From: a virus
Taxonomy: Duplodnaviria > Heunggongvirae > Uroviricota > Caudoviricetes
IMG/VR virus record: IMGVR_UViG_3300012348_000120
Reading direction: 5' to 3' (one strand)
DNA: 64,000 nucleotides
A model generated the notes under the pieces. It did no database searches. It had not been told where the DNA came from and worked only from the letters and a program-made list of their open reading frames with translations. The position numbers were made by a program, and so were the translations under genes. Positions 21,808-44,087 of this stretch are shown one piece after another (the first letter of the stretch is position 1; each line of letters opens with the position of its first letter).

Positions 21808-22182
21808 TCATTCGACACTTTTTGGTTTCCATAACTTGGCGAACTTCAACACATTTGGCAAAGGTTCATCATCTTGATATGGACATACTACCACGCAACT
21901 ATCCCTTCCGTCAAGAGTTTTCTTCTCATGACCAATATAAACACTTGGAAGTGCTGCAATCTTGTCAAACTCTTTTTGACTTACTCGGACCACACATTTC
22001 TTGAATGAGTTTTCAAGCCAGTCAATATATTGCGGATACTTGTATGGACCATCATCTACAATACGAGCAAGGTCAGTATGGCATTTGACAAAATGCAGAT
22101 GAGCACCAAGCATAGAATGAGCGACAAGAGTTGGCGTCATATAGTCTGGAAACTCATCTAATACTGCAATGTAAAGTTTCAT
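21808..22182 (-). CDS. possible PTH2-family peptidyl-tRNA hydrolase-like protein (weak)
   Basis: MKLYIAVLDEF...TPTLVAHSMLGAHLHF resembles the PTH2 N-terminal motif; weaker than CDS 29170..29559. Confidence 0.4.
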   Translation of the reverse strand: MKLYIAVLDEFPDYMTPTLVAHSMLGAHLHFVKCHTDLARIVDDGPYKYPQYIDWLENSFKKCVVRVSQKEFDKIAALPSVYIGHEKKTLDGRDSCVVVCPYQDDEPLPNVLKFAKLWKPKSVE

Positions 22183-22346
22183 TTGTCATCCCATTCTTCC
22201 AAGGTTTCCATAAGTTCATACAAACTCATATCAATAATGTGTTGTCTGAATGCTATTTCTGGAGTATCCCCATAGTAAAGCGATGGAATGTTATGTGGGG
22301 CTTGATGCTTGATCCACCAAGCCTTATAGTTAGTATATGCTTTCAT
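22180..22346 (-). CDS. small hypothetical protein (about 55 aa)
   Basis: not in the ORF track; ATGA-coupled at both ends. Confidence 0.35.
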
Positions 22347-22582
22347 TCTTGAATAAACCCTTGCTGCTTTTGATATTCAATTAAACCCAAGTTGATCAAA
22401 TTTTCAATAAACTTAGGATCAAACTGAGAAGCGGGTTCAACCATATTGATTAGGTTCCATCCATGCCTATGACCACATCGCCCTAAGTAAAGGGCGTAGC
22501 CATCTCCATGTGGTTCAATCGTGTATTTACTTTCACAAGTGCAAGGTTTGAGTAATGCTGTCCATACATCTTCATTGGTCAT
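22343..22582 (-). CDS. hypothetical Cys/His-rich protein
   Basis: 79-aa ORF. Confidence 0.45.
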   Translation of the reverse strand: MTNEDVWTALLKPCTCESKYTIEPHGDGYALYLGRCGHRHGWNLINMVEPASQFDPKFIENLINLGLIEYQKQQGFIQE

Positions 22583-23199
22583 CCGCGATACTCTCCAACG
22601 CCAAGTCCATCTTTCAGCCCCGCACTTCGAGTTCCCGGCCTTACAGGAATTACTGTGAGGTTAATCCAGCTTTCAATTCCAACACCATCATGTGCGTCTT
22701 CAACCCTGATATGAAGTGCGTTCTCCCTTGCCCATCTCGCAAGTTCGTCCCAAATATCTTGGTGTGCAGCTTTACCTTTCACTGCATCTTGAACCCATTT
22801 CTTTCGGTCATAATCCTTGATCTTAATCAAGGGAACTTTTCCTTCAACGATTGATGCGGTCAACGTAACAATCGTGTCATCTTTCAGACGCGATAGTTTG
22901 ATACGTTCTTGACGAATCTTTTCACGATCCGCATTCGCTTGTTGTTCAAGACCTTTGATTTTTGCTTGTTCAAGTTCATCAAGGGTAGCAGCCAGTTTTT
23001 GGCCAAGAGTTTCACTTTGCATATTCTTATCTCCGCGATTCAAGTAAATGAGAGTTTTTACCAAGTCGGGGTTTGGAACACATTCCCCTTTGTTATGCCC
23101 CATCATAGACGATGCCTTTCCGCAAGTCAAGCAGAAATATCCATGAGCAAGACCGTTTGGGCGAATGTGTTCCATATTAGTTACTCCATAGTCGGACAA
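22579..23199 (-). CDS. hypothetical protein with N-terminal zinc-finger-like motif and coiled coil
   Basis: 206-aa ORF; CLTCGK...HNKGEC. Confidence 0.5.
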   Translation of the reverse strand: MSDYGVTNMEHIRPNGLAHGYFCLTCGKASSMMGHNKGECVPNPDLVKTLIYLNRGDKNMQSETLGQKLAATLDELEQAKIKGLEQQANADREKIRQERIKLSRLKDDTIVTLTASIVEGKVPLIKIKDYDRKKWVQDAVKGKAAHQDIWDELARWARENALHIRVEDAHDGVGIESWINLTVIPVRPGTRSAGLKDGLGVGEYRG

Positions 23200-24230
23200 A
23201 GGTTACGTAGTTGTGGGGCTTCAGTGAAGCCATAACGGTTCATAATGTTCTGTGCCTCTTGGACAGTGCCGCGATGATAGTAGCCACCAGCTACCGATTG
23301 CTCAGTCATAACAACAGGAACCATACCATACGGCAGTTCTACAAACTCTGCGGTCACACCGTCAAACTTGTTTTGTGGAATAACCCATACTGCTACAGCT
23401 TCTTCATCGCCATCCCAAGGATTATCAATGGTGAAAGCAACATAGTAGCAATCTTCTGGATTCAGTTCTGGTTCTTTGACAACAAGACTTTCTTTTTCTT
23501 TTTCATCACTTTCGATTTTGTTTGCCAACGCATCAAGAAAATCATCAAGAGAGAGGTTCATAAAGTCGTCAGAGAACTCAACACCAGTGTCTTTTTCTGT
23601 AACTTCATCTGCAAGTTCCATCAAAAGTTTGAATGGTTCTGAGCCTTCAGCAAACTCGTCATTATCTTCATTGCACTTATCCATATAGTCTTGGATCATT
23701 TTAGAAAAATCGGAATTTTCAACCAGACCAAGAGCAAGAAGCGCGGCCTTAGCTTCCTCTACCGTGCCATCATACACAAACTGCCCTTCCATGACTTCAT
23801 CAAATCCATCAGGAAGATCAATTCCACTGTGCTGATCATACATGTGTCCAGTTTGCTTGAAATAGTCAATCGGCGTGATAGAAACCGATGTTACAAGATC
23901 ATCATCGTCATCACCGAAAATGTCGGGTGCTTCATGTGCATAAAAGCAGTAACCACTTGGATTGGTTGGCGGTTGATACGTTGCCGTGTTATCATCCTCA
24001 TCTTCATCATCTTCATACGGATGATAGTGTTCGGAAATCTCAAAATCCGCATTATCATGAAGTTCCAAGTCTTCTTCGCGCCAGCCGATGTCTTCATTTA
24101 GGTCAGACAACTTGTCAATACGTGCCTGACGTGCAGCCGCAGTCGAAAACACTTCAATCGGAGAATAGAAGATATTGCAATCTTCACGGCTTCCATGGTC
24201 AACATCATAGATGAGAACGTATACGGTCAT
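23181..24230 (-). CDS. highly acidic protein (Asp/Glu-rich); candidate DNA mimic or internal protein
   Basis: 349 aa with long D/E runs (EDDEDEDD, GDDDDDL). Confidence 0.5.
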   Translation of the reverse strand: MTVYVLIYDVDHGSREDCNIFYSPIEVFSTAAARQARIDKLSDLNEDIGWREEDLELHDNADFEISEHYHPYEDDEDEDDNTATYQPPTNPSGYCFYAHEAPDIFGDDDDDLVTSVSITPIDYFKQTGHMYDQHSGIDLPDGFDEVMEGQFVYDGTVEEAKAALLALGLVENSDFSKMIQDYMDKCNEDNDEFAEGSEPFKLLMELADEVTEKDTGVEFSDDFMNLSLDDFLDALANKIESDEKEKESLVVKEPELNPEDCYYVAFTIDNPWDGDEEAVAVWVIPQNKFDGVTAEFVELPYGMVPVVMTEQSVAGGYYHRGTVQEAQNIMNRYGFTEAPQLRNLCPTME

Positions 24231-24496
24231 TTAGTTTCGCTTTCCATTACAAAAAAAGTGGGTTCGTAGTCAAGTTCAAATACAAAGTATCGTTTATTTC
24301 CTGATTCGTCAATAGCCAAAATGCGTTCATCCGAATCTTTCATCCATTCCCAACCATCGCGGTGACTATACAGATACTTGCAAAAGTTGGTAATATCCCA
24401 ATCAATCATCAAATCGGAAGAATCGATGACGTGAGTTGGTTCCAACTCACCATTGAAATCTTTATATTCTTGTTCTAAGAACAACTGATACTTCAT
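24227..24496 (-). CDS. hypothetical acidic protein
   Basis: 89-aa ORF. Confidence 0.45.
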   Translation of the reverse strand: MKYQLFLEQEYKDFNGELEPTHVIDSSDLMIDWDITNFCKYLYSHRDGWEWMKDSDERILAIDESGNKRYFVFELDYEPTFFVMESETK

Positions 24497-25206
24497 TAGT
24501 AGTCTCGCTTTCCATATGTGAAACGTTTCACTGACCCAGTGATACTTGCATCGTCAACAAGCAACTCATGAGAAAGAGTTGCGGCCAAAGTAGGCCAATC
24601 TTCAGCAAACATTTTGCAATCATAGCTAAATGTGTTATTATTGCCGCCACCACCTGTTCCAATGTGAATACCAGTTTTACGCATTACGTCAGAACCAAAG
24701 CCAAGATCATGACTGACCTGATACGAGATGCGTCCTTGCCAACCAGGGTAAGAACGAGGAATGCCCTCTTTATCCTTGCTACCACACCAGTTGGTTTTCT
24801 TTCCACGCGGTGCAGAATGTGAGTTGGAAATTTGTTGGTTGTAGGTCAAGTCCAAATAATGGATTTTGATCCAGAATTCGGAACGAATATGAGCACGACG
24901 ATTTGACCACCCACTGTGGCCAAACTCAATCATATTGTCAAAAAAGAATTCTGGATTGGTTTCAATCCAATCAATAATGTCTTTGAATGTCGGTTGATTG
25001 TAGAACGTAGCAAACTTACGGTCTAAGATGTTGCGCCGCGCCCGCTTATGCATACGATTTTCGCGAAGGTCTTTCAAATGTTTCAAATATGCTTTTTTTG
25101 TGGAAAACAAATCGTTTGTCCAAGGGCATTGGTAAACCTTTGCAATCTTTGCTTCACTCACTGGAATAATCTTTCCGTTTGCTTTGTATGCTTGAATCGC
25201 GGGCAT
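24496..25206 (-). CDS. hypothetical protein
   Basis: 236-aa ORF. Confidence 0.5.
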   Translation of the reverse strand: MPAIQAYKANGKIIPVSEAKIAKVYQCPWTNDLFSTKKAYLKHLKDLRENRMHKRARRNILDRKFATFYNQPTFKDIIDWIETNPEFFFDNMIEFGHSGWSNRRAHIRSEFWIKIHYLDLTYNQQISNSHSAPRGKKTNWCGSKDKEGIPRSYPGWQGRISYQVSHDLGFGSDVMRKTGIHIGTGGGGNNNTFSYDCKMFAEDWPTLAATLSHELLVDDASITGSVKRFTYGKRDY

Positions 25207-25820: not shown

Positions 25821-26870
25821 TCAGTCCCCGCCTTTCAGAAGGAACTGATTGCTGATCGTCTTGAAACTGAAACTTGGGTCTTCGTTGCATTTCCACACAA
25901 GACCCTCGCGAACCTTGTGAACGATGCTTGGACCTTCAGCAAGAGCAAGACCTTCTTCCACATTACGTGGCGCTGGCATTGCCGTTCCGAACACTGGAAC
26001 GTGTTCCAGTTTCAATTGTTTACATACTTCCCGCCGTGCTGTGGGACCAACGTATAGATGGCTGAACATATTGAACACGTCAAACACAAAGAACTGATGT
26101 TCTTTGAACCCTTCACGGTTTCCCTGAATGCCCGGACCCATAAATTCACCTTGGAAAGCAAACCCATCGGGAATGCTGTCACCAATCTTGAGGGCCATAG
26201 CAACAAGAGTATTGTCTTTGTTTTCTTCGTTGATTTTCAGTTCAAGGTTCCGACTGCAAACACGAAGTTCACCTTCCCAACGGAAGATAGTGCAACTGGT
26301 TCCATCCAGTTTCATTGTTACTTCGTAAGTAACATCACCTTTGTCCTGAATCTCTTGGAAACAGTTCTGAATGCGTTCCTGATCAGTTTTAGGAATCAGG
26401 CTGGTGGGAAACAGACCACGAACTTGACCAGCAAGTTGAGCAGGGATTTCTGGTTCCCACTTTTGGATGTTGAGAGCATCAGTTACGTCATCGTCCAGTG
26501 AAACTTGTCGATGGAACCCAATCCCATCTTCATGCTTGAAAGCCAGAATACATGGGAACTTGTCGCGGTCACCGTGCCATTCTACAGGAAGCAGTAGCCC
26601 CTGAGAAACTTGACCACGCAGTTTGACTGTCCGAAGACGTTCACCTTTCACCCCATTGTATTCACGGGGTTCTTGTCCTTTTGACAGGAACGCAGCAAGT
26701 TCAGTTGGCACCCAAGAGTCAATTTCAAGGTAAACGGCAAGGTCACCAACTTGAAACTCGTCTTTCTTGACCACAACTTTCCAGCCATCAACTGTGGCCA
26801 CGACAATAGCATCAGCACCTTCAATGGGCTGAATGTCGGAAATCCGACGAATAGAGGCAAGTTTACGCAT
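25821..26870 (-). CDS. ATP-dependent RNA ligase, DraRnl/Rnl5-like (N-terminal OB-like domain plus nucleotidyltransferase domain)
   Basis: motif I KLDGTS (Lys about 187), motif III FQGEFMGPG, motif IV EGLVWK, motif V SFKTISNQFLLK; start trimmed to MRKLASIRR after gggagaaaaaata. Confidence 0.8.
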   Translation of the reverse strand: MRKLASIRRISDIQPIEGADAIVVATVDGWKVVVKKDEFQVGDLAVYLEIDSWVPTELAAFLSKGQEPREYNGVKGERLRTVKLRGQVSQGLLLPVEWHGDRDKFPCILAFKHEDGIGFHRQVSLDDDVTDALNIQKWEPEIPAQLAGQVRGLFPTSLIPKTDQERIQNCFQEIQDKGDVTYEVTMKLDGTSCTIFRWEGELRVCSRNLELKINEENKDNTLVAMALKIGDSIPDGFAFQGEFMGPGIQGNREGFKEHQFFVFDVFNMFSHLYVGPTARREVCKQLKLEHVPVFGTAMPAPRNVEEGLALAEGPSIVHKVREGLVWKCNEDPSFSFKTISNQFLLKGGD

Positions 26871-27483: not shown

Positions 27484-27525
27484 GGTTACAGATTATGTAT
27501 ACAGTGATTCGTATGAAATGTCAAG
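27484..27525 (-). promoter_or_regulatory. early promoter plus leader (copy)
   Basis: gene-sense TTGACAtttcatacgaatcacTGTATAcataatctgtaacc. Confidence 0.6.
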
Positions 27526-28045
27526 AGTATGATTTCAAAAAGTTGCGAACATATTCATCGGAAGCATCGCCCATATCTTTGCCTTCATCCATCACATGAT
27601 GCTGATTGCCAAATTTAGCAAGTTTGCGGCCAGCAGCATCATTATCACATACACAAATGACGGGACGATTCTTTCTCGCCACCCATAACCAACGAGCCAC
27701 AGAACTGTCCAGATCATTAGAAAGGGTGGCAATAGCAGAATAGCCATAAGAAGTAAGTCGAGCAGCATCAAAAACACCTTCTGTTACAAACAATACGTTT
27801 GAGAATGACCAAGATTCAAGACCCCAAACCCCGACCACTTTATCTTTTCGCCAAGTAAAGTATTTGCCATCTTTCGGATGGTTGAATGCTTTTTTGTCAC
27901 CAGCAGGGCGATATTGCTGATAGCCAACCATTTGACCAGAAAGGTTCCACAATGGAAAAGTGGCAACGCCTTCTTCTTCATCCACCCAAGCAGTGTGAAC
28001 GTTCAAGTCAAAGTGTCTGGACTTCAAGTTTTCAAGAACGGTCAC
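27521..28045 (-). CDS. stand-alone Toprim-domain protein
   Basis: VICVCDNDAAGRKLAKF...DASDEY Toprim acidic motifs; probable GTG start after aaggag; the track start is a TTG. Confidence 0.55.
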   Translation of the reverse strand: MTVLENLKSRHFDLNVHTAWVDEEEGVATFPLWNLSGQMVGYQQYRPAGDKKAFNHPKDGKYFTWRKDKVVGVWGLESWSFSNVLFVTEGVFDAARLTSYGYSAIATLSNDLDSSVARWLWVARKNRPVICVCDNDAAGRKLAKFGNQHHVMDEGKDMGDASDEYVRNFLKSYS

Positions 28046-28057
28046 AATATTACTCCT

Positions 28058-28100
28058 TCTTATCAAAAGCAATATACGACGATTCGTGTAGAATGTAAAG
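28058..28100 (-). promoter_or_regulatory. early promoter variant (TTTACA -35)
   Basis: gene-sense cTTTACAttctacacgaatcgtcgTATATTg. Confidence 0.45.
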
Positions 28101-28102
28101 AG

Positions 28103-29169: not shown

Positions 29170-29559
29170 CTACCGATGCAGAGAAAATTGTTTCATGTAT
29201 TCCGCTTCTTCTTCGGTGTAAACAAACACCCAAGCACAGGTGACTTCCGAACTTACGAAAACATCACCATAGAAGTTACGCCAAGGATAAGTCGGATCAA
29301 CCGTAACGCCACTGTGTGGCATAACACTGGTGATTTCGTTGATCTTTTCCAGAGGTTCGTGTAGAACCAGAGTTACACCAAATTCACGATCTTCTCGCCA
29401 AGCACTCATAGCCCGCCAAAACTCATCTCCGTCTTGATGAACTAACGAACTTTGATAAGCCCCAAAGTCTGCTTGAGCATGTGCAGCTTGCGCCATAGCT
29501 TTGCCAGGATTCATATCCTGAATATCTTTGCGCATGATAATATACAGTTTCGGTTCCAT
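29170..29559 (-). CDS. PTH2-family peptidyl-tRNA hydrolase
   Basis: LYIIMRKDIQDMNPGKAMAQAAHAQ matches the PTH2 signature (KMVxVVRxDL..GKxAAQxxHA). Confidence 0.65.
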   Translation of the reverse strand: MEPKLYIIMRKDIQDMNPGKAMAQAAHAQADFGAYQSSLVHQDGDEFWRAMSAWREDREFGVTLVLHEPLEKINEITSVMPHSGVTVDPTYPWRNFYGDVFVSSEVTCAWVFVYTEEEAEYMKQFSLHR

Positions 29560-29561: not shown

Positions 29562-29837
29562 TTACTCCATTGTGAACAACATCATTGCCTTATCTGTATC
29601 AGATAATGTGCAGTATGTCAACCATTCTTTGAAGGACATATCACATCCTTCGATATAAAACAAGGAAACCCCACGCCGAATAATTGCAGGACCATTCGTG
29701 TTATGGAGTTTCCCATTTTTTAGAAACATCGTTCCCTGTGATAAATCCACTCGTTTCGTCTCACCTTCGGTTACAAAAATAATCCGACTCGCGATGTATT
29801 GATCAATAGTCTTTGATGTATTCTTAGCCTTTGCCAT
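29562..29837 (-). CDS. MORN-repeat-like protein
   Basis: NGKLHNTNGPAII motif; paralogous to CDS 7421..7735. Confidence 0.45.
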   Translation of the reverse strand: MAKAKNTSKTIDQYIASRIIFVTEGETKRVDLSQGTMFLKNGKLHNTNGPAIIRRGVSLFYIEGCDMSFKEWLTYCTLSDTDKAMMLFTME

Positions 29838-30519
29838 AGATACTCTCGTGTGTCACTTCCAGATCATCCAAATCCACGTCTACATAATCAAGTTCTCCAA
29901 GACACATAAACGTGGTGTTTCCATACTTGTGACGCATGGTGTGGTGCCAGTGGCCAAAAAACCAAAAGTCAGGTTGATGAATATCAAGCATTGCATCAAA
30001 CGCTTGGGCAGTTCTGGTTTTGTATTCAGCCCCTTTGATAATCCCAGTATTGAAAAACATTTCTCGTGAGATACGTTGAGGGCAATCATGAGTAATCATA
30101 ATACGAGGTTTTGCAAAAGAATACAGTTCAATAAAACGATAGAACTGTTCATCAGAACATTGCTCATCTGCCCACCAATCCACATCCTCTGTGCGACGAT
30201 ACCAACCTGGTGCACCATCTGGACCGTCAATACTCCAAGCACCACCGATGAACATTGTTTCATTTTCAACCGTGCCATCTGGAATGTATCCGACCATTTC
30301 AGACCTACACATTGAAGGCTTGTCATGGTTTCCACGAATGAAGCGATGAGTGCCATCAGAATGAAATGAGTTTACACTTTCAACCCAGTAGTCACTTTGA
30401 CCAAACCCAATGCCAAAATCTCCGACCTGAATAGTAGGACCACCAAAGTTTCCAATAGAGTATGCTTTGTAGTCATTCACCATACCATGAATGTCACCAA
30501 TCAAACGAGTGAGTGTCAT
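29824..30519 (-). CDS. calcineurin-like metallophosphoesterase
   Basis: GDIHG, GDFG...GNHD, GHWHH motifs. Confidence 0.75.
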   Translation of the reverse strand: MTLTRLIGDIHGMVNDYKAYSIGNFGGPTIQVGDFGIGFGQSDYWVESVNSFHSDGTHRFIRGNHDKPSMCRSEMVGYIPDGTVENETMFIGGAWSIDGPDGAPGWYRRTEDVDWWADEQCSDEQFYRFIELYSFAKPRIMITHDCPQRISREMFFNTGIIKGAEYKTRTAQAFDAMLDIHQPDFWFFGHWHHTMRHKYGNTTFMCLGELDYVDVDLDDLEVTHESIYGKG

Positions 30520-31301: not shown

Positions 31302-32696
31302 TTACTGTTTGGTAGGAGTTCCGATAGTTGGATCAACACTCAGTTGTTTTGCAGAGTTCAGCATCATAAGTTGCATGAACTGGTCAACCGTGCCAAGTGC
31401 ATTTCCAGAAGTCCCATCACCACCACCAGCAATCACAGTAGAAGGAACGTTGATCTTAGAGGCAGCATCCGCCCAAACACGCTGTGCTTCAACCCAAGCA
31501 TCAAGTTTCTGTTGTAGAGCACCGTCAGCTTCAAGAATGGCTTGCTTTGCGTAGGCTTCTGCATCAGCAGCAACAGTCACAGATTGTGCGTCAACCTTTG
31601 CACGTTCCAGATTGATTTCAGAAGTTTCTTGTGCAATTCGGGCTTCTTCGCGAACACGTTCAGCTTCGATCAGAGCAAGTTTTTTCGTGGTTTCAGCGTT
31701 TGTGGTCTTTTCAATCTGTTCCACTTTTGCTTCTGCTTGACGCTTGGCAATGTCAGTTTCACCTTGTTGGATTGCAAGCAACCGCTGTTCTTCTTGTTCA
31801 AGACGCTGTTCACGAGCAACTACGCGACGAGATGCAGCTTTCTTACGTTCACCAATCTGACGCTCGTATTCATCATCGGGGTCAATGTTTTCAAGAATTG
31901 CAGAAGATACAACAACACCGATTTCCGCGAAGTCATGTGGGGTTCGGATGTCATTGCCGCTTGCGTCTGTCACTTTTTCCATCATAACACGACGAACTTC
32001 AGTGTCACCAACTTCCGAAGTGTCGGCAGCAACATCGCTACTTGATGGAGCAGCACGGCTAGGAATTACGCCACCAGCTTGGTTGAATGAAACTTGACGA
32101 ACCTGAGCACGACCCTTTTCAACAGTATCTTTGAACTCGCTCTTGAACTGGTCACGCTTACCACCAGAGTAGTATTCTTCCATTGTGAACATGTTAGATA
32201 CTGAGTCAAGTGATGCAGTAACGGCAGGTTTCAGAGTAGTGCTAATTAGACGTTCAGGACTACGGAAGGTTCGTGCCATCGTCAAGAATTGTTCTTGATC
32301 TTGTGGGATCGCAAAACGAGTGGTCTGAGTAACATCACCTGTCCAGTTGTCTGCTAGGCGAACACGATATGGACCCGTGACAGAACTGCCATCCGCTTCG
32401 ATATCAATCGTGTTTGCGACTGTGATGAAGTGAGGCCATGCTGTGGAAGTCCCCCAACCAACAAAGAACCAACCTGTTTCACAGACTGCGGTTTCGGTTC
32501 CGAAAATGCTTCGCGTATGCTGGCAGTATCCAGCGTCATTGTAACTTACCGCGCCAAGACCGATGATCGCGACACCAAATACACCAATTGCCGATGCGAC
32601 AATTGTTTTTACTTTTCGTAGTTCGGGAATGAGAGGAACCGCCTTGATTGCAATTGCAGCAATGATAAAGACGATGCCTAGAATGAGTCCAGTCAT
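31302..32696 (-). CDS. SPFH/band-7 (prohibitin/HflK-like) membrane protein with long coiled-coil C-terminal region
   Basis: N-terminal TM helix, SPFH-like core, then a long Ala/Glu/Gln-rich coiled coil. Confidence 0.7.
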   Translation of the reverse strand: MTGLILGIVFIIAAIAIKAVPLIPELRKVKTIVASAIGVFGVAIIGLGAVSYNDAGYCQHTRSIFGTETAVCETGWFFVGWGTSTAWPHFITVANTIDIEADGSSVTGPYRVRLADNWTGDVTQTTRFAIPQDQEQFLTMARTFRSPERLISTTLKPAVTASLDSVSNMFTMEEYYSGGKRDQFKSEFKDTVEKGRAQVRQVSFNQAGGVIPSRAAPSSSDVAADTSEVGDTEVRRVMMEKVTDASGNDIRTPHDFAEIGVVVSSAILENIDPDDEYERQIGERKKAASRRVVAREQRLEQEEQRLLAIQQGETDIAKRQAEAKVEQIEKTTNAETTKKLALIEAERVREEARIAQETSEINLERAKVDAQSVTVAADAEAYAKQAILEADGALQQKLDAWVEAQRVWADAASKINVPSTVIAGGGDGTSGNALGTVDQFMQLMMLNSAKQLSVDPTIGTPTKQ

Positions 32697-32744
32697 TTAT
32701 ATATCCTATTTTGAGATTGTGTGTGAGTTAGAGTTGTGTTGAAC

Positions 32745-32880
32745 TATCGTAGTTCATAATGGTTTCATGGTTTTCAATCAAGTGCCATACTCCGCGCTCA
32801 ATCGCTTTACCAAGACCCCATAGCCCGCCAAACATAAGAACGTTTGGGATTACATAGTATACAATTACATCTACCATGTT
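32745..32880 (-). CDS. small membrane protein (about 45 aa)
   Basis: not in the ORF track; promoter cassette at 32912-32956 directly upstream; RBS ggaaataac before the ATG. Confidence 0.4.
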
Positions 32881-32911
32881 ATTTCCTTCATATTGAGTTC
32901 GCACTATTGCT

Positions 32912-32956
32912 CACTCTTATGTGTTATATATAGTATAGATTCGTGTCTATGTCAAG
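32912..32956 (-). promoter_or_regulatory. early promoter (copy)
   Basis: gene-sense TTGACAtagacacgaatctatacTATATAtaacac. Confidence 0.55.
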
Positions 32957-33144
32957 AGGATATTAAGTGAAAAGCAAGATTTTCTGAGTTTGCATACTTT
33001 CTATAAGTATAGATGTATTCCATCCTTCCGCCCATAATAGTAACTTTAGTGCATATTCTCAAAAACATCCACTTTTTAGTAAAGATGCACCAACTAAATG
33101 GATTGATGCACCTTACTTCTTTGCAGTCTATTATACGGTCATCA

Positions 33145-33483
33145 TTATGCAAAGTTTACAGAGACTCCACATCCGCAGCCAGATTGTGCATTTGGATTGA
33201 AAAGTTCAATCTTACTTCCAGTAATATCGCTGACATAATCAACAGTTGTTCCGATGAGATACATTAGACTGTGACTGTCAACATACAGAGTAAATGTATC
33301 GTATTCTTGAACTTCATCACCAAACATATGGTCTTTGACTTCATCAAAGATTTCCCAGTGGTATTGAAACCCTGCACATCCGCCGCCTATAATTCCAAAC
33401 TTCACCAGTTTGCCAGATGCGATATTAGTAAAGTGATTGATTGCTTTGTCGGTTAGTGTTACAACACTCATTTTTTTCTCCAT
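33145..33483 (-). CDS. HesB/IscA-family iron-sulfur cluster insertion protein
   Basis: GGGCAGFQY and C-terminal GCGCGVS Cys motifs. Confidence 0.75.
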   Translation of the reverse strand: MEKKMSVVTLTDKAINHFTNIASGKLVKFGIIGGGCAGFQYHWEIFDEVKDHMFGDEVQEYDTFTLYVDSHSLMYLIGTTVDYVSDITGSKIELFNPNAQSGCGCGVSVNFA

Positions 33484-33965
33484 TTCGTAATTGATAGACC
33501 ACTATCTGTGAGTTCGTTATTGTGAATATAAAAGTTACTTTCAACTTTTTCTTTGGGTAAGAATACATCACAGTCATACGAACTCGTAATATTACTTATC
33601 CACAATTCATCTATAATGCCAATACAGCTTTCAACAAGAGTTGCGCCGCCGATGATCCATGTGATATACTCTGAATATCTGGGTTCAATGATTTCTTTTA
33701 TTATCTTAGATGGATCGCCACTATAAACTCCATGTGGGGCATTCTTCCACTCATTTGAATTCATGGTAGAAGATATTACAAAGTTTAGACGATTAGATAG
33801 TGGCTTATAAGGAAGACTTTCCCAAGTTTTTCGCCCCATAACAACTGAATGTCCATTTGTGCAATCTTTGAACCATTTCAGATCAGCAGAGTTGCGAGGC
33901 CAAGGCAAGTCTCCGTTCTTGCCTATGCCCCAATTTTCATCCATCGCAAATATTGCTCTTATCAT
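33468..33965 (-). CDS. frd: dihydrofolate reductase
   Basis: MIRAIFAMDENWGIGKNGDLPW...VMGRKTWESLP...IGGATL. Confidence 0.85.
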   Translation of the reverse strand: MIRAIFAMDENWGIGKNGDLPWPRNSADLKWFKDCTNGHSVVMGRKTWESLPYKPLSNRLNFVISSTMNSNEWKNAPHGVYSGDPSKIIKEIIEPRYSEYITWIIGGATLVESCIGIIDELWISNITSSYDCDVFLPKEKVESNFYIHNNELTDSGLSITKWRKK

Positions 33966-33976
33966 TGTATTCCTAC

Positions 33977-36643
33977 TTAAAACCTTTTTGTAAGTGTGAA
34001 ACCAATCTGTGGTGCAGTTTCACCGTCAATGCCCATATAGTTTTCGCGAACTTCTGCAAACATAGACACATTTGTAGTAGGTGTTACATCTACGTTATAA
34101 AACAGACCAAGATTTACTTCTCGGCTATTGTTCGCAAGAGATTCCGACGAAGTAGCGGAAGACACAATTCCCTCTGCACTTACGGATGATGCGTATTCCA
34201 TACTTACGTCACCAGATTGAATTGCTACGGGCAATGCAGCAACAATACCAAAATTTCCATTTCTGGTATTGAATTTTGCTCCAACACTCGCAGTGTTGCT
34301 GATCATTGTGCCAGCACTTTTCATCATAGAATTTTCTCCAACGTTTAGATCAGTAGCACCAACACCGATACTTCCGAACAAAGAACCAGACGAAGTTTGG
34401 ACTTCATGCTTCAGATTTACATAGGTAGTGGTTGCGCCCGTTACATTCATAATTGGACTGGTTGCCACATTTCCAAGGAATGATCCATCTTCTTTCATAA
34501 CACCAAATGTTACAAAGTCGTTGTTATATGAAACCCCATAGTTTGTGCCATCGTCATTAGCTGATACTGCAAAGTTTCCAACATTGATATTGAGTCCCTT
34601 TGTATAGCCAAGATAATTGTCCGCATTTGAATTGTATGATGCGGCAAGAACTGGACTCACCATACGAGTATCAGTCGCAATATTTAGTTTGTTGCCATCC
34701 ATATAAAAGTTTCGGTCATATTCATCTACCACCATCATACTTGACAGTGAAGCCATATTCATACCAGAAACCGATAGCTGTCCATCAATAGATGTAGTTG
34801 CACCATCAACCCGCCCAGTAGTTGGAATACCAATCGCACCCTGTGGACTTGTTGCATTGTCAAGGTCCATAAGTCCTTGTCCATGAATGTTTACATCATA
34901 ACCAGAAAATGATTTGTCAGCAGTATTCATTAGCAACTTTACAACATTCTCGCCAGTCATATATGGCCACATTTGATGAACAAGTGCAACGCCACCAGAA
35001 ATAGCAGGAGCAGCCATTGAAGTTCCACTCAATGCACGATAGTCGCCGTTATTGTTGGTAGAAGTCACCCAAGTCCCTGGTGCCATTAGGTAGTAATCAC
35101 TAATACGGTTTGTATTGTTACAATCGTTTGTGACTGCATTGTAATCAAAGCACATTGTTCCAGCACGGTTGGAGTAGGATGCAATGTTATTGGTGCCAAG
35201 ATCAAATGAACCAGCGATGATTACACGACCATCCAGCGCAAGGTTTCCACTTTCGTCTGTGATAGTTGCATAATGTGCAGGGAAAGCAGGAAATGCCAAG
35301 CCTTGGTTTCCAGCAGCAACAACCAGAACGGTGTCATTTCCACTCATTGCAGTAATAACTGGTGCCGTGAAATTGTCGCTGTTTAGGAGTTGGTTATATC
35401 CAAGAGACTGATATGGAGCATATGTGCTGCGATAGAACCCATCACCAATTGATACTACGCTGTTGCGATAGGTAGAGTCCATATTCATTTCTGCACTTAC
35501 GTTTACAACATCAGCACCGTTTGATACTGCCCAAGCGATGCCATTGCCAACTTGGTCAAGTTCAACGTATCCATTATCATGGCTGATTTTACCAACCAGA
35601 ATATCAGCATCGGGTGCAACACCAGTCATACCCACTCCATCAAGTGCGGCAGCAGCAATACCAGTAACATGTGTGCCATGTGCTACTGAGTTTTTGTCCT
35701 GAATCGTTTCATAGCCATTCTTGCACATCACAGTGAAACATTTGGTTCCGACAATACGACCATCAAACTCTTGATGATCCAAATCAATACCAGTGTCCAG
35801 AATTGCGATAGTTGAGCCAGCACCAGTATATCCGCGACTCCAAGCAACGTTTGCGCCAGTAGCAGGAAGCCAGTTGGCATATGGTCCAAGCCCACTTGGA
35901 TTTAGAATTGTATTAGTTGTGTAATATGGATTCGTAACTTTTACCGCATCAATATACGTCTGTGTCCCTGCAAGGCTTACGTCCGTTCTTGTCGCATATT
36001 CTTCTGCGGTCAAGAATTCAGATTGGCTCGCGTGTGTATTTTGCACAGAACTTACCAACACTCTACCCGATGTTTGCGTCTCAGAGATTGACGAAGAAGT
36101 TGAAATTACGTTTGATGCTGTATTTGTTTTTGTTGTTCCATCACTGTAATACTCAGTGGTAATTTTGGTTTCAACAACTTGAATCGTAGTTGTGGTTTGA
36201 TAATACTTTACCGTAACCTCATATGTATCGGTTGTAGTGTCAGTGTTTACAACTTCGGTTGTTTTAGTTGTATTTACGAGAACTGGATCAGAAACCGTTG
36301 TATTTGTATTTTGTGTAGAAGTTGATGCAGTGTTGATAACTGTCGGTGTGAGAGGATTTGAAACACCCAACAGAATAGCAAACTTTGCAACATCTTCCTT
36401 ATACATTACAACTTTCGCTTCCAACGATTCGTAACTTGCAGTGCCATCTAACCGCTTGTATGCATCAAGATAGGCAGAATAGGTTTTGATATAACCCAAG
36501 TATTGAGTCATATATCTTTGAGCAAGAGTTGTCTGTGTTGTTTTGTTTTTGATGCTTGCGATTGAATCGTAAACTGCACCAGCATACACTGGTGAGACGA
36601 CTGCGAACATAGAAATCAAAAAAGCGAACAGAAAGTTTTTCAT
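33977..36643 (-). CDS. secreted subtilisin-like serine protease (S8) with Thr-rich linker and autotransporter-like C-terminal beta-domain
   Basis: signal peptide; catalytic triad motifs DTGID, HGTHVTG, GTSMAAPAISG; about 330-aa C-terminal region of alternating residues ending in ...FTLTKRF. Confidence 0.75.
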   Translation of the reverse strand: MKNFLFAFLISMFAVVSPVYAGAVYDSIASIKNKTTQTTLAQRYMTQYLGYIKTYSAYLDAYKRLDGTASYESLEAKVVMYKEDVAKFAILLGVSNPLTPTVINTASTSTQNTNTTVSDPVLVNTTKTTEVVNTDTTTDTYEVTVKYYQTTTTIQVVETKITTEYYSDGTTKTNTASNVISTSSSISETQTSGRVLVSSVQNTHASQSEFLTAEEYATRTDVSLAGTQTYIDAVKVTNPYYTTNTILNPSGLGPYANWLPATGANVAWSRGYTGAGSTIAILDTGIDLDHQEFDGRIVGTKCFTVMCKNGYETIQDKNSVAHGTHVTGIAAAALDGVGMTGVAPDADILVGKISHDNGYVELDQVGNGIAWAVSNGADVVNVSAEMNMDSTYRNSVVSIGDGFYRSTYAPYQSLGYNQLLNSDNFTAPVITAMSGNDTVLVVAAGNQGLAFPAFPAHYATITDESGNLALDGRVIIAGSFDLGTNNIASYSNRAGTMCFDYNAVTNDCNNTNRISDYYLMAPGTWVTSTNNNGDYRALSGTSMAAPAISGGVALVHQMWPYMTGENVVKLLMNTADKSFSGYDVNIHGQGLMDLDNATSPQGAIGIPTTGRVDGATTSIDGQLSVSGMNMASLSSMMVVDEYDRNFYMDGNKLNIATDTRMVSPVLAASYNSNADNYLGYTKGLNINVGNFAVSANDDGTNYGVSYNNDFVTFGVMKEDGSFLGNVATSPIMNVTGATTTYVNLKHEVQTSSGSLFGSIGVGATDLNVGENSMMKSAGTMISNTASVGAKFNTRNGNFGIVAALPVAIQSGDVSMEYASSVSAEGIVSSATSSESLANNSREVNLGLFYNVDVTPTTNVSMFAEVRENYMGIDGETAPQIGFTLTKRF

Positions 36644-36678: not shown

Positions 36679-37230
36679 TTATTTGATGCGAAGTTCTTCG
36701 ATGTTGACAGGAGTGTAGTTAGTCTGTTCCACACAGACACACTTGTATGGACCTTCTGGCGAAAGGTTTTGGTGAATGTGACCATGAACGTTCAATAGTT
36801 GGTTTGGTGGATGCTCCGAAAAACTCTTATCGGGCGCACCACGAAATAGAGAACTTTCGTGCAATGGAACATGGCTCAACATAAGTCCAAACTCTGGAAA
36901 CATTCTCCACATTTGAACTTTCTGAAAGAAGCCACCACTGGATAGAAACTTGATGTCATCATGGTTTCCAACAATCAGACGCTTACTGCCTGTAAGTCGT
37001 GGCCATAGCTTCTTGAATTCATCGCCATTTCCCATGAACACATCACCAAGGTGATATACTTTGTCGCCTTGTTTGACAACGCTATTCCAGCGGTCTACCA
37101 TACATTCATTCATTTCCTCAACAGTTGAAAACTCTGGACGAATTCTTAGCCCAGTATTACTGTCGGTAAATGAAAGAATATTTTTATGGAAAAAGTGTGT
37201 ATCACTCGTAATCCAAATATCAGACATCAT
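36679..37230 (-). CDS. calcineurin-like metallophosphoesterase (second copy)
   Basis: ITSDTHFFH, LGDVF, GNHD, GHIH motifs. Confidence 0.75.
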   Translation of the reverse strand: MMSDIWITSDTHFFHKNILSFTDSNTGLRIRPEFSTVEEMNECMVDRWNSVVKQGDKVYHLGDVFMGNGDEFKKLWPRLTGSKRLIVGNHDDIKFLSSGGFFQKVQMWRMFPEFGLMLSHVPLHESSLFRGAPDKSFSEHPPNQLLNVHGHIHQNLSPEGPYKCVCVEQTNYTPVNIEELRIK

Positions 37231-40633: not shown

Positions 40634-40941
40634 TTTACGATTTCTTTCACTATGTCGTAGTTTTCTTTGGCTTCGCGAAGTGCAGGATATTCTCGCAACA
40701 GATGCTTATCAGTTTGACGATATTTCAGTTGGGCATTGCCTTCGTTATTGATGCCCATGTAATACTCATACCCCTTTTCAAAACGGTTCAGAATACGCTC
40801 CAAACTCCTACGCTGACGTTGGTAGTCTGACAGCAACAAAAACTTTTCCTCTTTTTCATAGACGGTTTCAAGTTCTTTGAGAGTATCGATTTCTTCACGA
40901 ATTGCATCTATGATGGTATATGGTTCACTCATCGGTTCCAC
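40630..40941 (-). CDS. hypothetical protein
   Basis: 103-aa ORF. Confidence 0.5.
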   Translation of the reverse strand: MEPMSEPYTIIDAIREEIDTLKELETVYEKEEKFLLLSDYQRQRRSLERILNRFEKGYEYYMGINNEGNAQLKYRQTDKHLLREYPALREAKENYDIVKEIVK

Positions 40942-41290: not shown

Positions 41291-41565
41291 ATCAGATCAC
41301 TCCATTTTTTCAGTTTTTCTTTCTTGACTTCTGATCGGGCTTCCAGTTCATCCCAAGTCAATACATTATGGGCAACCATTAGCTGTAACATGCACAACAC
41401 GTCACCCGCTTCTTCTACCAACTTTACGCGGTTCGCAATCGCTCTTTCATCATCGGCAATCACTTCTTCAACAGTTTCGTATTTGCGAACAGTCTTACTG
41501 CATTGCTGCGTAAGTTCGGCGCATTCTTCCATGGTGATTACCATCAGTTGTTGTAGCTTATTCAT
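41287..41565 (-). CDS. mazG: MazG-like nucleotide pyrophosphohydrolase
   Basis: ITMEECAELTQ...LVEEAGDVLCMLQL, all-alpha NTP-PPase EExxE motifs. Confidence 0.65.
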   Translation of the reverse strand: MNKLQQLMVITMEECAELTQQCSKTVRKYETVEEVIADDERAIANRVKLVEEAGDVLCMLQLMVAHNVLTWDELEARSEVKKEKLKKWSDLI

Positions 41566-41804
41566 GTGAACCTCAATTTATGTAGTTTGTCTCTTACCGC
41601 ACGAGTATACCAAGTTTGATCCTGTTTGTCAACGGTTTCAATAAGATATTCAAGATCAAACTTATCTAAGAATTGATCGGAACTGTGGTTTTCCTCTGGT
41701 TCAGCAATATAGCCACGGAGTTTTAGTTCTTCCACTAAGTCATCATCAGTGAAATCATCCAAGTCAACATCTACATCAACATCGACTGTAATCGTTTTAT
41801 ACAT
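41562..41804 (-). CDS. hypothetical acidic protein
   Basis: 80-aa ORF. Confidence 0.45.
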   Translation of the reverse strand: MYKTITVDVDVDVDLDDFTDDDLVEELKLRGYIAEPEENHSSDQFLDKFDLEYLIETVDKQDQTWYTRAVRDKLHKLRFT

Positions 41805-42051
41805 TTTCCATCTCCCTTATTTTTGCTGGTGGAAGTATGTCGCCTTGCATAAGCATCATTTCTTCCAATGCATTCTCATTTGTTGGATGTGTGACGACCC
41901 ATCTAACCGTTTCGTTAGCTTGTGTCACCTCTTTAGTCACAAATCCTGTATCACGTAGGATGTTTCGCCATCTGTCAATTTTGTTCCTCTTGACATAATA
42001 CGGATTTGTGTTTCCGTAGTATACTTCAATCACCCAAGTTTTCATAGCCAT
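41797..42051 (-). CDS. hypothetical protein
   Basis: 84-aa ORF. Confidence 0.45.
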   Translation of the reverse strand: MAMKTWVIEVYYGNTNPYYVKRNKIDRWRNILRDTGFVTKEVTQANETVRWVVTHPTNENALEEMMLMQGDILPPAKIREMENV

Positions 42052-42473
42052 TGTAATGCAAACCTCGCAGCGTCAGTTTCATTTTCAAATGCGACAAATA
42101 CAGCTTCGCCGCCTCTCCCATCAAAGTAGTCAAATGTTCCATCGGAACGAGTTCTATGCCAATGCACTCTATACTTGCCCTCGCAGTTATGTTTGCACCA
42201 TATTCTAAACTCAAACGTTCCGTCTGAAAAAAATCCATTATCATACGAAGGCTGTCGCATTACAATTCCAAATGGAACTTCAAACAGAATGTAACCAGAA
42301 TAAAACTCTTGGACTGTCTTAGCATTTACATTCAAGTTGGGGTCACGAATCATATGATATTCATACCAAGTCTTGCATCCAGAATCTTCAAGAACCTTGC
42401 GGATTCTTCTTTTTCTAAGTCTTGCCCTGATACGAAAAATACCAAACATAGTTATTGCTTGCGTTCCCACCAC
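42042..42473 (-). CDS. hypothetical protein
   Basis: 143-aa ORF. Confidence 0.5.
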   Translation of the reverse strand: MVGTQAITMFGIFRIRARLRKRRIRKVLEDSGCKTWYEYHMIRDPNLNVNAKTVQEFYSGYILFEVPFGIVMRQPSYDNGFFSDGTFEFRIWCKHNCEGKYRVHWHRTRSDGTFDYFDGRGGEAVFVAFENETDAARFALQWL

Positions 42474-43018
42474 TGTTTCCAGACTTTGCGTGACACAGTG
42501 TCATACAAATCTTCGTATCCAGTCTCTACTGGATTATCATTGCCGCCTTTCTTGATATGAAAGAACGCCAACGCACCTTTATTTTCCTTGCAGAAGTTCT
42601 CAATCGGTATGAGTTCATCTGCAATTTTCATCAGTTCTTCAGAACCAGTAAAGAATTCTCCTTGCCAATTCAGTCTTAGGCCATAACAATACACGTTGAT
42701 ATTCCAATTGTCAACAAGATTCGCTAAATCCCATACTTGTTCTTTTGTAAGAAACTGTGCCTCATCAACCATCAAAAAGTCTGGTTTGGTGGCGTGTGAT
42801 TTTAGAATCTTTGCACTCGGTAAGTCAGATGGTCCGACAATCAAACACTCATGCTCAATACCAAGGCGAGTTGTAATGGCAGTTGATCTATCATCAACCG
42901 CTGGCTTCATTAGAACCGTGCTAAATCCTTTTTGTGTCAATGTATGATTTCTGGTAAGAACCGAAAGGCTCTTACCAGAATTCATTGACGAATATACAAA
43001 CGTCAGTTTAGTCATCAA
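42452..43018 (-). CDS. tk: thymidine kinase
   Basis: P-loop FVYSSMNSGKS, FLMVDEAQF, C-terminal zinc-ribbon-like region. Confidence 0.85.
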   Translation of the reverse strand: MMTKLTFVYSSMNSGKSLSVLTRNHTLTQKGFSTVLMKPAVDDRSTAITTRLGIEHECLIVGPSDLPSAKILKSHATKPDFLMVDEAQFLTKEQVWDLANLVDNWNINVYCYGLRLNWQGEFFTGSEELMKIADELIPIENFCKENKGALAFFHIKKGGNDNPVETGYEDLYDTVSRKVWKQWWERKQ

Positions 43019-43590
43019 CGGCTCTCGCTGTGCAGCTTCTTTGCATAGTATTTGCCGATTTTGTCAAACGACGAACCAAGGAAAACATAAACGAAGTTGT
43101 ATAGGAATACAAAAGGCTTATGAATAACTTCCCAAGTAAAGTGGAATGGCCACATTAGAACGTATGACGCAAGACGATCTTTGTTGTTTCGGGCTGTATA
43201 CTTTGAATATTCATATGAGTCCAAATAGTCATCAAACGTGCCTTCATGATTGCGATGCCAAGATTTGAACTTATCTTCAATATCGTAGTGATGATGTTTG
43301 ATGAACAGAGGCCAACGCCATAGACCTGTATATACTGCACCAATAGCTGCGTAGACAAATGCGGAAACTACAAATGTCAAGGTATTTGCAAAAATATAAG
43401 AAATAACTGCAATACCCACCGCATACTCTGCGACTATGGCACCAAGGAATAGAATTCCAAACCCCATAATCATACTTTCAGTTCGGCTTGCCAGAATACC
43501 AGAGGCAAGAAATACAATCAAAAATAGTGCCGCCCAAACGCCACTAAACGCACCAATAAAACTTTCCATCAGATTTACCTTTCTATCCAA
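43015..43590 (-). CDS. polytopic membrane protein (about 5 TM helices)
   Basis: 191-aa hydrophobic ORF. Confidence 0.55.
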   Translation of the reverse strand: MDRKVNLMESFIGAFSGVWAALFLIVFLASGILASRTESMIMGFGILFLGAIVAEYAVGIAVISYIFANTLTFVVSAFVYAAIGAVYTGLWRWPLFIKHHHYDIEDKFKSWHRNHEGTFDDYLDSYEYSKYTARNNKDRLASYVLMWPFHFTWEVIHKPFVFLYNFVYVFLGSSFDKIGKYYAKKLHSESR

Positions 43591-44087
43591 TTGCCCATGA
43601 TGCTTTGTGCATTGAGCATGTGTTTATACAATAGACCGTTTTCTGGATCGGTCTGAACCAATCTTCCTTTTCCGAGGATTTCCTTGAACCGATACCGATT
43701 ATCATCAAACAAGATGAAATCATCTACATCGGTTGCAAAATTTTCAAGATAGTCTTTTACTTCATTTGCACGATCCCACTTCTTTTGAACTGCAAAATTG
43801 TCTGGATCGGTTTTCCAAGGTGATGCAATCATACCACGAAAACCAGAGTTGGCAAAAGCAGAACGAACCCAATGTTCAATCATGTTGTCGTCATTACGAA
43901 GTCCATTTTTCCAAGTTGACATAATAACAAACTCAACTGGATACTTGTCATGAATCTTGTTCATAAAGTCAACGGCAACTGGATCAAACCTTGCCCACAT
44001 CTTGTATTCTGAATTGTGTGCAAAGTGGACACGTGACGAAGTAAACACTCCGTCAATATCCAAAAACACAAGATACTTTCTATCCAT
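43575..44087 (-). CDS. HAD-superfamily phosphatase-like protein
   Basis: motif I FLDIDGVF near the N-terminus. Confidence 0.55.
   Translation of the reverse strand: MDRKYLVFLDIDGVFTSSRVHFAHNSEYKMWARFDPVAVDFMNKIHDKYPVEFVIMSTWKNGLRNDDNMIEHWVRSAFANSGFRGMIASPWKTDPDNFAVQKKWDRANEVKDYLENFATDVDDFILFDDNRYRFKEILGKGRLVQTDPENGLLYKHMLNAQSIMGNWIER

Follow-up and report, generated by a model that had tools for sequence, protein, structure and literature searches.

Gene content of the window

The 64,000-nucleotide stretch of the Caudoviricetes record IMGVR_UViG_3300012348_000120 (IMG/VR), referred to in its full length as the window, encodes an Rnl5 RNA ligase together with two metallophosphoesterases (MPE-A and MPE-B), a Pth2-family putative peptidyl-tRNA hydrolase, a CCA-adding enzyme, a GatB/YqeY-domain protein and several further proteins considered here as a possible RNA-repair set. 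Family memberships and conserved catalytic residues were observed for these proteins, as was a conserved gene neighbourhood in related phages. Our best explanation, put forward as a whole with moderate confidence, is that the window is an early or auxiliary region of an uncultured 'huge' phage of about 350 kb and carries, in dispersed and apparently reduced form, the kind of RNA-repair and tRNA-maintenance island that its clade typically has. The genes concerned are as follows.

25821–26870, minus strand: Rnl5 RNA ligase (PF21189, PF09414, PDB 5cot, TIGR02306; phrog_968, 4e-90)
29170–29559, minus strand: divergent Pth2-family putative peptidyl-tRNA hydrolase, 129 amino acids (aa) (PF01981, AlphaFold/Foldseek, hhalign)
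29824–30519, minus strand: MPE-A, calcineurin-like metallophosphoesterase, 231 aa (PF00149, 28.8 bits against a cut-off of 21.5; phrog_1649)
36679–37230, minus strand: MPE-B, small metallophosphoesterase of the Aquifex aq_1665 type, 183 aa (phrog_547, 2.3e-50; PDB 1xm7, 7.5e-13)
3263–4531, minus strand: multifunctional CCA-adding/repair enzyme, 422 aa, with a C-terminal HD phosphohydrolase domain (PolyA_pol, RNA-binding and HD domains)
12560–13027, minus strand: GatB/YqeY-domain protein, putative tRNA-binding, 155 aa (PF09424, 32 bits against 27; phrog_1460)
12006–12545, minus strand: Rv2179c-like DEDD 3'–5' exoribonuclease, 179 aa, directly downstream of YqeY (PF16473, 7.5e-30)
45830–46087, minus strand: WYL_2 (Sm-like SH3 barrel) protein, 85 aa (PF10902, 1.7e-14)
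43575–44087, minus strand: standalone HAD phosphatase of the HAD_SAK_2 ('Swiss-army-knife', SAK) family, 170 aa (PF18143, 3.5e-19, 70 bits against 27.5)
21808–22182, minus strand: Pth2-fold protein without the catalytic Lys, 124 aa (phrog_5822; fold and profile-level homology to Pth2)

The repair-set genes all lie on the minus strand, those located in a first-pass annotation made by a model from the letters being found at the coordinates given there, and each has tens to thousands of homologues, so that they are real genes and not chance open reading frames (ORFs). Nearly all genes of the window share this strand and are tightly packed, with a G+C content of 36–45%. A megablast search with 24 kb of sequence against the 50,697 deposited phage genomes of INPHARED gave no near-identical record, and distant blastn returned nothing beyond ClpX-level similarity. 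A protein 100% identical to the window Pth2 sits on a 350,385-bp contig, and close relatives measure 347–374 kb, including GCA_902725615.1 (356 kb); the window thus belongs to an uncultured 'huge' phage, of which it covers 64 of about 350 kb, with about 285 kb of the genome outside the data.

The ligase is an Rnl5 enzyme by sequence

The PHA02142 OB domain (PF21189, 3.2e-32) covers residues 20–112 and the RNA_ligase domain (PF09414, 5.8e-24) residues 198–353 of the 365-aa ORF. The alignment with the Naegleria gruberi RNA ligase NgrRnl (5cot; E=1.6e-67) runs over the full length and conserves KTDQER, KLDG, QGE, REGLVxK and FSFK, and the NCBIfam model TIGR02306 (RNA_lig_DRB0094) is passed with 183.1 bits against a cut-off of 151.15. 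The predicted adenylylation site is Lys187 in KLDG, aligned with the KLDG of NgrRnl (Lys170), and motifs III, IV and V are kept. Judged by these features the window ligase is an Rnl5 ligase, which bears out the DraRnl/Rnl5-like enzyme with motifs I, III, IV and V that the first-pass annotation had described, including its Lys-adenylation motif. The window ligase shares the N-terminal OB domain, the C-terminal adenylyltransferase domain, the Lys nucleophile and motifs III, IV and V with Deinococcus DraRnl (DR_B0094) and NgrRnl, and differs from them in being phage-encoded. Its start codon overlaps the stop codon of the ORF upstream. It is 38–51% identical to ligases of cultured phages, and the annotated neighbourhoods in S-CREM1 and pf16 were uninformative, consisting mostly of 'hypothetical' genes. 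Rnl5 enzymes seal 3'-OH/5'-PO4 nicks in duplexes with an RNA 3'-OH strand and are duplex-nick sealers, not anticodon-loop ligases, and Rnl2, NgrRnl and DraRnl have the same substrate specificity (PMC5397189).

Some further features of Rnl5 loci were noted, with L numbers denoting loci and contigs of related phages. In L024, L025, L026, L028, L030 and L054–L056, the Rnl5 gene is split by about 1 kb with a GIY-YIG endonuclease ORF (PF01541; e.g., L024 8700–10750), which points to a mobile intron or homing element within the gene. In the L042–L057 group, another type of nucleotidyltransferase, with a HIGH motif, is found just upstream of Rnl5. In the window, a standalone 183-aa DnaG-type primase core/Toprim fragment (27521–28072, minus strand), matching positions 148–336 of the 435 of phrog_849 and lacking the zinc finger and helicase-binding part, lies two genes upstream of the ligase; in 15 of 80 loci Rnl1 has a homologue of this fragment within 10 kb, and the fragment may belong to the RNA-repair island, not to replication.

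A conserved neighbourhood in related phages

Since the repair-set genes are dispersed in the window, their neighbours in other phages were examined. The Rnl5 set comprised 55 IMG/VR loci with an Rnl5 homologue of 30–81% identity, and the Rnl1 set the best 80 Rnl1 loci, all at least 39% identical; an association matrix was derived from reciprocal searches, neighbours being counted within 10 kb. In L007 the order Rnl5, MPE-A, Pth2, CCA enzyme and YqeY is contained within 8.5 kb, and in L008 it is Rnl1, Rnl5, MPE-A, Pth2, Pnkp-HAD and YqeY, with L010 and L019 similar. MPE-A lies directly upstream of Rnl5 in L027 and L050, and a metallophosphoesterase keeps this position in L027, L050 and L052, whose ligases are merely 30–50% identical. 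MPE-B is found near Rnl5 in the distant loci L029, L033, L034, L037, L039 and L052 and near Rnl1 in 22 of 80 loci. The CCA enzyme adjoins YqeY in L007 and L010, and YqeY lies 1–3 kb from Rnl5 in L004, L012 and L016–18.

Around Pth2 (33 loci), the neighbours were MPE-A (22), WYL_2 (17), Rnl1 (13), the CCA enzyme (11), MPE-B (8), YqeY (7) and Rnl5 (6); WYL_2 was also near Rnl1 in 16 of 80 loci and near Rnl5 in 11 of 55. MPE-A is thus a conserved gene partner of Pth2. Eight control genes of the window (thymidine kinase, DHFR, SPFH, ClpX, PNP, GreA, IF3 and S21) gave 0–3 occurrences. When all 135 window ORFs were ranked with no preselection and with the syntenic relative left out, the same repair genes came out on top, and it is the RNA-related genes, not the immediate window neighbours, that are retained in relatives. 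The recurrence in islands, with controls at 0–3, supports a functional module of Rnl5, MPE-A/Pth2, CCA enzyme, YqeY, MPE-B and WYL_2, which is consistent with a shared role in RNA or tRNA repair. The distributed tRNA-repair toolkit proposed in the first-pass annotation thus finds support for the subset Rnl5, MPE-A, Pth2, CCA enzyme, YqeY and MPE-B, which recurs as a compact island, but not for the HAD phosphatase and the second Pth2-like protein.

A basic 80-aa protein (51860–52102, minus strand) with no family match and unrelated to WYL_2 is, like WYL_2 itself, encoded next to the Pth2/CCA/YqeY island in 17 of 32 Pth2 loci; RNA binding is possible for both proteins.

Pth2, the phosphoesterases and the acceptor-end enzymes

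Profile searches matched the ligase to PF09414 and placed Pth2 (PF01981) and the HAD phosphatase (PF18143) above their cut-offs, and the families of the CCA enzyme, the GatB/YqeY protein and both metallophosphoesterases were likewise confirmed (Pfam, NF008137, PHROGs and 1xm7). The protein at 29170–29559 had been called a clear Pth2. Membership in the family holds: the AlphaFold model (pLDDT 85.6) has Pth2 structures as all of its top 11 Foldseek matches in the PDB (TM 0.52–0.70), and the hhalign profile comparison with archaeal Pth2 gives a probability of 93%. The protein barely passes the PF01981 cut-off, with 25.5 bits against 23 and only its N-terminal half covered, and fails the NCBIfam Pth2 equivalog with 20.4 bits against 126, indicating a divergent subfamily. 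Invariant Arg10, Asp12, Gly19-Lys20, Gln24 and His27 correspond to Sulfolobus Arg9, Asp11, Gly17-Lys18, Gln22 and His25. Compared with archaeal and eukaryal Pth2 (Sulfolobus 1xty, Pyrococcus 1wn2 and human Bit1 1q7s), whose fold is common to both Pth2-like proteins of the window, the protein at 29170–29559 thus shares the N-terminal catalytic signature including Lys18 and differs in a longer C-terminal beta-hairpin.

The active site of MPE-A is complete (GDxHG, GD, GNHD, H and GHWH), and these motifs are invariant in 10 homologues. MPE-B aligns to 1xm7 with the metal-binding motifs present. The CCA enzyme, which is of the E. coli Cca type and has a class II nucleotidyltransferase head, passes NF008137 ('multifunctional CCA addition/repair protein') with 481.5 bits against 451. 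The window also carries the following tRNA genes.

163–634, minus strand: three tRNA genes, Arg-TCT, Leu-TAA and Met/Ile-CAT (ARAGORN, Rfam), each with an encoded 3'-CCA

With CCA already specified by all three genes, these ends do not require the CCA enzyme for their initial synthesis, which fits a role in repair. As a separate observation, the tRNA-Met (163–239) may be a lysidine-modified tRNA-Ile2: in the relative L278 (15142–15768, just past the left edge), a PP-loop ORF with an SGGVDS motif, TilS-like by eye, follows tRNA(CAT), and three more tRNAs, including the odd calls Tyr-ATA and Ser-ACT, lie behind it.

Two proteins at the margin of the module

The HAD phosphatase and the Pth2-fold protein at 21808–22182 are not demonstrably part of the module. 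The HAD protein keeps the motifs VFLDIDGV (motif I, DIDGV intact), MSTW and FDDN (motif IV), and a PDB sequence search with it gave no match. Its gene shares a block with those for thymidine kinase and a membrane protein; the 191-aa ORF beside it was considered as a kinase and ruled out, being a multi-pass membrane protein. Among 14 HAD loci, the neighbours within 10 kb were thymidine kinase (7/14), MPE-A (4/14), Pth2 (4/14), Rnl1 (2/14) and Rnl5 (0/14). By this association test, the HAD protein is not in the RNA-repair module; the first-pass annotation was thus right about the family and the motif, and membership in the toolkit is not supported.

The protein at 21808–22182 had been taken for a weaker second copy of Pth2, and it does have the Pth2 fold. 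However, the catalytic Lys is absent, invariant Met15 being aligned with Lys18 and Leu19 with Gln22. The two Pth2-like proteins show no detectable relationship to each other (BLASTP E=0.14; hhalign probability 0.6%) and are ruled out as recent paralogues, and each matches the Pth2 profile separately. The Lys-less protein has no Pfam or NCBIfam match, and none of its 1834 homologues has a Pfam domain; the longer homologues carry C-terminal extensions, which are not conserved and give no domain clue. The family has members in Pseudomonas and T5-like phages and occurs in 196 cultured phages, nearly always annotated as 'hypothetical'. In Pseudomonas phage PAK_P1 it lies in the replication module, flanked by an exonuclease and by ribonucleotide reductase, and repair genes are absent from the 9 kb around it. 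Across 80 loci, enrichment within 10 kb is weak (MPE-B 18, Rnl1 13 and Pnkp-HAD 9), and in L174 a full Pnkp adjoins it.

There is thus a serious possibility, falling somewhat short of an even chance, that these two proteins have other tasks: the SAK-type HAD would be a nucleotide phosphatase serving the thymidine kinase and DHFR genes, and the Lys-less protein an accessory of a replication module with another ligand or substrate. The association of HAD with thymidine kinase and not with Rnl5, the replacement of both Lys18 and Gln22, and the context in PAK_P1 all favour this. Against it, PF18143 was itself defined from RNA-repair contexts ('HAD domain in Swiss Army Knife RNA repair proteins'), Iyer et al. 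(2021; PMC7824862) list the standalone SAK-HAD as a 3'-phosphatase of jumbo phages, MPE-A and Pth2 are each found in 4 of the 14 HAD loci, and the Lys-less protein does have MPE-B, Rnl1 and Pnkp-HAD, or the full Pnkp of L174, as neighbours.

The window lacks a kinase that its relatives possess

The first-pass annotation held that the window encodes the enzymology needed to heal damage by PrrC, RloC and colicin-type nucleases and that it does so with an Rnl5-type ligase rather than the T4 Rnl1/Pnk pair. The breaks that these nucleases make in the anticodon loop have 2',3'-cyclic phosphate and 5'-OH ends. Candidate 2',3'-cyclic or 3'-phosphate esterases are available in the window, namely MPE-A, MPE-B, SAK-HAD and the HD domain of the CCA enzyme. 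Rnl1, kinase and Pnkp-HAD were not found in the 544 six-frame segments of the window with local hidden Markov models (HMMs) built from neighbours (best E 0.075), the best window match to a 5'-OH polynucleotide kinase in the six-frame HMM search having E=0.14 at 7 bits, and tblastn of the window for Rnl1 and Pnkp was also without match. RlaP, 2H and RtcB domains were absent from the window ORFs scanned with Pfam and PHROGs, a scan in which not every small ORF was covered. According to Iyer et al. (2021; PMC7824862), ends produced by metal-independent RNases can be ligated only after a kinase and phosphoesterases have acted on them. With 5'-OH ends and no kinase in the window, an ATP-dependent ligase cannot seal PrrC-, RloC- or colicin-type breaks with the window's genes, and the enzymology claimed for such damage is therefore incomplete; moreover, the ligase is of the duplex-nick-sealing kind.

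In related phages, a T4 Rnl1-family ligase (PF09511, 1.3e-20) lies 0.6–3.4 kb upstream of Rnl5 in about 11 loci and is the most informative Rnl5 partner in unbiased neighbour clustering. The islands of relatives also carry Pnkp-type HAD domains (PF25109; 39/80 Rnl1 loci) and AAA_33 P-loop kinases; the matches to the T4 Pnkp query were validated with Pfam PF25109 and PF13671. Rnl5 is thus an addition to Rnl1 and Pnkp in this clade, not a replacement, and 'Rnl5 rather than Rnl1/Pnk' fails for relatives that keep an Rnl1-family ligase and Pnkp kinase and HAD domains beside Rnl5.

The main rival to our explanation follows from these relatives. The phage may possess a full T4-type pathway of healing and sealing, with Rnl1 and Pnkp, or RtcB, encoded elsewhere in its 350-kb genome; Rnl5 would then be a second, specialised ligase, and 5'-OH breaks of the PrrC type would be repairable. 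The close spacing of Rnl1 and Rnl5, the HAD_PNKP and AAA_33 kinase genes in the same islands, the combinations of ligases noted in phages by Iyer et al. (2021), and the coverage of 64 of about 350 kb agree with this. However, beyond the negative six-frame searches of the window, no ligase or kinase was found in the 6.8 kb past the left edge or the approximately 8 kb past the right edge in close relatives, and the 203-kb contig of the closest relative is missing from the best 80 Rnl1 loci. We consider such a pathway possible but doubtful.

Weighing a shared pathway

It appears unlikely that there is no pathway at all and that independent auxiliary genes have simply gathered in hyperplastic early regions, shared neighbourhoods reflecting common descent and the timing of co-expression. 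In keeping with such a history, the genes of the window are interspersed with others of unrelated function, gene order varies between relatives, most of the informative loci come from one clade with ligases 59–81% identical, and glutaredoxin and other unrelated small genes recur too. Nevertheless, the RNA-related genes are retained where the immediate window neighbours are not and the control genes remain at 0–3, the metallophosphoesterase beside Rnl5 persists down to 30–50% ligase identity, and every enriched enzyme acts on RNA ends or tRNA. Least likely of all is that Rnl5 works on DNA, sealing nicks with a ribonucleotide 3'-OH side (primer remnants or misincorporated ribonucleotides) in replication or repair, perhaps together with the primase-derived Toprim protein encoded two genes upstream and with the metallophosphoesterases, which would clean the ends as nucleases. 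The RNA requirement of DraRnl is confined to the 3'-OH side of the nick, and in its absence the genome is reassembled with delay after irradiation (PMC5397189); moreover, the DnaG-type Toprim fragment recurs near ligases, and about 10 loci have an ATP-dependent DNA ligase beside Rnl5. Against this, the strongest partners are the tRNA-specific Pth2, CCA enzyme and YqeY and the classical tRNA-repair pair Rnl1/Pnkp, and the islands hold no polymerase or recombination genes, bar an occasional RuvC-like ORF.

Several points count against a reduced RNA-repair island. The repair-set genes of the window are scattered over about 40 kb between unrelated genes (DHFR, subtilase, SPFH and thymidine kinase), and the co-localisation in relatives comes largely from one phage clade, so that shared descent contributes to it. 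The physiological role of Rnl5 has been called 'uncharted', the only reported phenotype being in DNA repair after irradiation (PMC5397189). In Pth2, the hhalign alignment stops before the DAGxT motif with the catalytic Asp86, whose equivalent was not placed; invariant Asp88, Asn95 and Glu105 are candidates for the catalytic Asp, and Thr107-Cys108 match Thr98-Cys99. The PDB search with MPE-A detected no sequence similarity to solved RNA-repair phosphoesterases, and its profile gave a borderline match to Dbr1 (E=0.006) alone, so no substrate is assigned to MPE-A. Finally, the approximately 285 kb outside the window could encode Rnl1, Pnkp or RtcB.

A possible scenario for the reduced island

For the substrates of the enzymes, their cooperation and a role in counter-defence, we infer the following scenario from the reduced RNA-repair and tRNA-maintenance island. 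The ligase, by the property of its family, would self-adenylylate on Lys187 and seal 3'-OH/5'-PO4 nicks in base-paired RNA. As the window encodes no 5' kinase, ligation is chemically complete only for the direct resealing of 5'-P/3'-OH breaks, to which the upkeep of tRNA 3' ends is added as the other complete chemistry; candidate targets of the resealing would be tRNA-stem nicks made by metal-dependent Toprim (OLD/PARIS) or PIN-type nucleases. The Toprim nuclease P2-OLD nicks tRNA anticodon stems, leaving 5'-phosphate/3'-OH ends, and both T4 Rnl1 and Rnl2 close a single nick of this kind with no prior healing of the ends (PMC12445682). The metallophosphoesterases and the HD domain of the CCA enzyme may remove 2',3'-cyclic or 3'-phosphates, the DEDD exonuclease and the CCA enzyme may trim and then rebuild the acceptor end, and Pth2 may strip peptides from peptidyl-tRNA dropped off stalled ribosomes, returning the tRNA to the pool.

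A bolder version, which we put forward tentatively and regard as improbable in its full extent, is that the lineage has pared the island down to a kinase-independent system with two branches. In one, Rnl5 would reseal the tRNA-stem 5'-P/3'-OH nicks of Toprim OLD/PARIS-type or PIN-type tRNases. In the other, MPE-A/Pth2 with the CCA/HD enzyme, YqeY and the DEDD exonuclease would form an acceptor-end repair module, removing acyl or peptidyl groups, phosphoryl or pyrophosphoryl adducts, or aberrant 3' nucleotides left by CCA-end toxins, and then rebuilding CCA. In this version, the Lys-less Pth2-fold family would count as a non-canonical member that either acts on another ester or serves for binding alone.

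Relation to known systems

The general concept, which the first-pass annotation had offered as a possible alternative phage counter-defence, is already published. In the account of Iyer et al. (2021; PMC7824862, section 3.4.9), jumbo phages respond to host attacks on tRNA with tRNAs, ATP-dependent ligases, standalone SAK-HADs, calcineurin-like and HD phosphoesterases, CCA enzymes, PTH2 and IF3. Al-Shayeb et al. (2020; PMC7162821) reported the same gene complement in huge phages. The window carries this same list, including S21. These papers group phage ligases as Rnl1 and Rnl2 and do not single out three points by which the present analysis goes modestly further: the tight MPE-A/Pth2 pair, the widespread Lys-less Pth2-fold family, and a lineage keeping Rnl5 without nearby Rnl1/Pnkp.

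Like the T4 tRNA restriction-repair system, in which Pnkp and Rnl1 act against PrrC, the window combines a phage ATP-dependent RNA ligase with candidate 3'-phosphoesterases in a presumed counter-defence, and in relatives the likeness extends to Rnl1 and Pnkp domains in the same island. Unlike T4, the window is without Rnl1 and a P-loop polynucleotide kinase, has metallophosphoesterases, an HD domain and SAK-HAD as phosphatase candidates in place of the Pnkp HAD, and encodes a duplex-nick sealer, not an anticodon-loop ligase. In the Pnkp-Hen1 RNA repair system of Clostridium thermocellum, which comprises a kinase, a metallophosphoesterase and a ligase, a calcineurin-type enzyme is the 2',3'-phosphate healing partner of an ATP-dependent ligase; in the window the proteins are separate, and there is no kinase and no Hen1.

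If the scenario were true, it would give the phage branch of Rnl5 ligases its first physiological role and would mean that metal-dependent tRNA-nicking defences (OLD, PARIS and similar), whose number is growing, are countered by phages that simply reseal the nicks and do without the kinase step of T4. The MPE-A/Pth2 pair and the widespread Lys-less Pth2-fold family are concrete, testable leads. As it stands, the window mainly represents one more uncultured huge phage with an already catalogued gene complement.

Other genes of the window and its relatives

Besides the repair set, the window encodes the three tRNAs, GreA, IF3, S21, ClpX, ClpS, HSP20, an IMPDH/GMP-reductase-family protein, PNP, DHFR, thymidine kinase, a subtilase and an SPFH protein. 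ClpX (55227–56471), IF3 (54710–55264), S21 (54469–54717), HSP20 (53681–54139) and ClpS (53329–53631) form a translation/proteostasis cluster on the minus strand; IF3 and S21 are already known from huge phages, and it is the tight ClpX–IF3–S21 arrangement that deserves note. The SPFH/Band 7 protein (464 aa) and the 888-aa subtilase lie within 31302–36643 (minus strand), with an Fe-S assembly gene (33145–33483) and the DHFR gene between them; SPFH homologues neighbour Rnl1 in 8 of 80 loci and Rnl5 in 4 of 55. A glutaredoxin (7169–7417) and a cytidylyltransferase-like protein (7707–8135) are also encoded on the minus strand, and glutaredoxin was near Rnl1 in 22 of 80 loci, the same count as for MPE-B.

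The first approximately 46 residues of a 130-aa ORF (18527–18919, minus strand) match the N-terminus of the T4 Gp23 major capsid model (PF07068, 3.1e-8, residues 7–46); the ORF is far from any structural module and may carry a capsid-targeting or propeptide-like sequence fused to another protein. A 286-aa protein (46084–46944, minus strand) with no Pfam, PHROG or NCBIfam match has motifs, CAGWYG ... SFDIDE, that resemble a class I SAM methyltransferase by eye only. In the close relative contig L062 (219–818), about 7 kb past the right end of the window, there is a gene for an alternative oxidase (PF01786, AOX), an unusual phage auxiliary metabolic gene.

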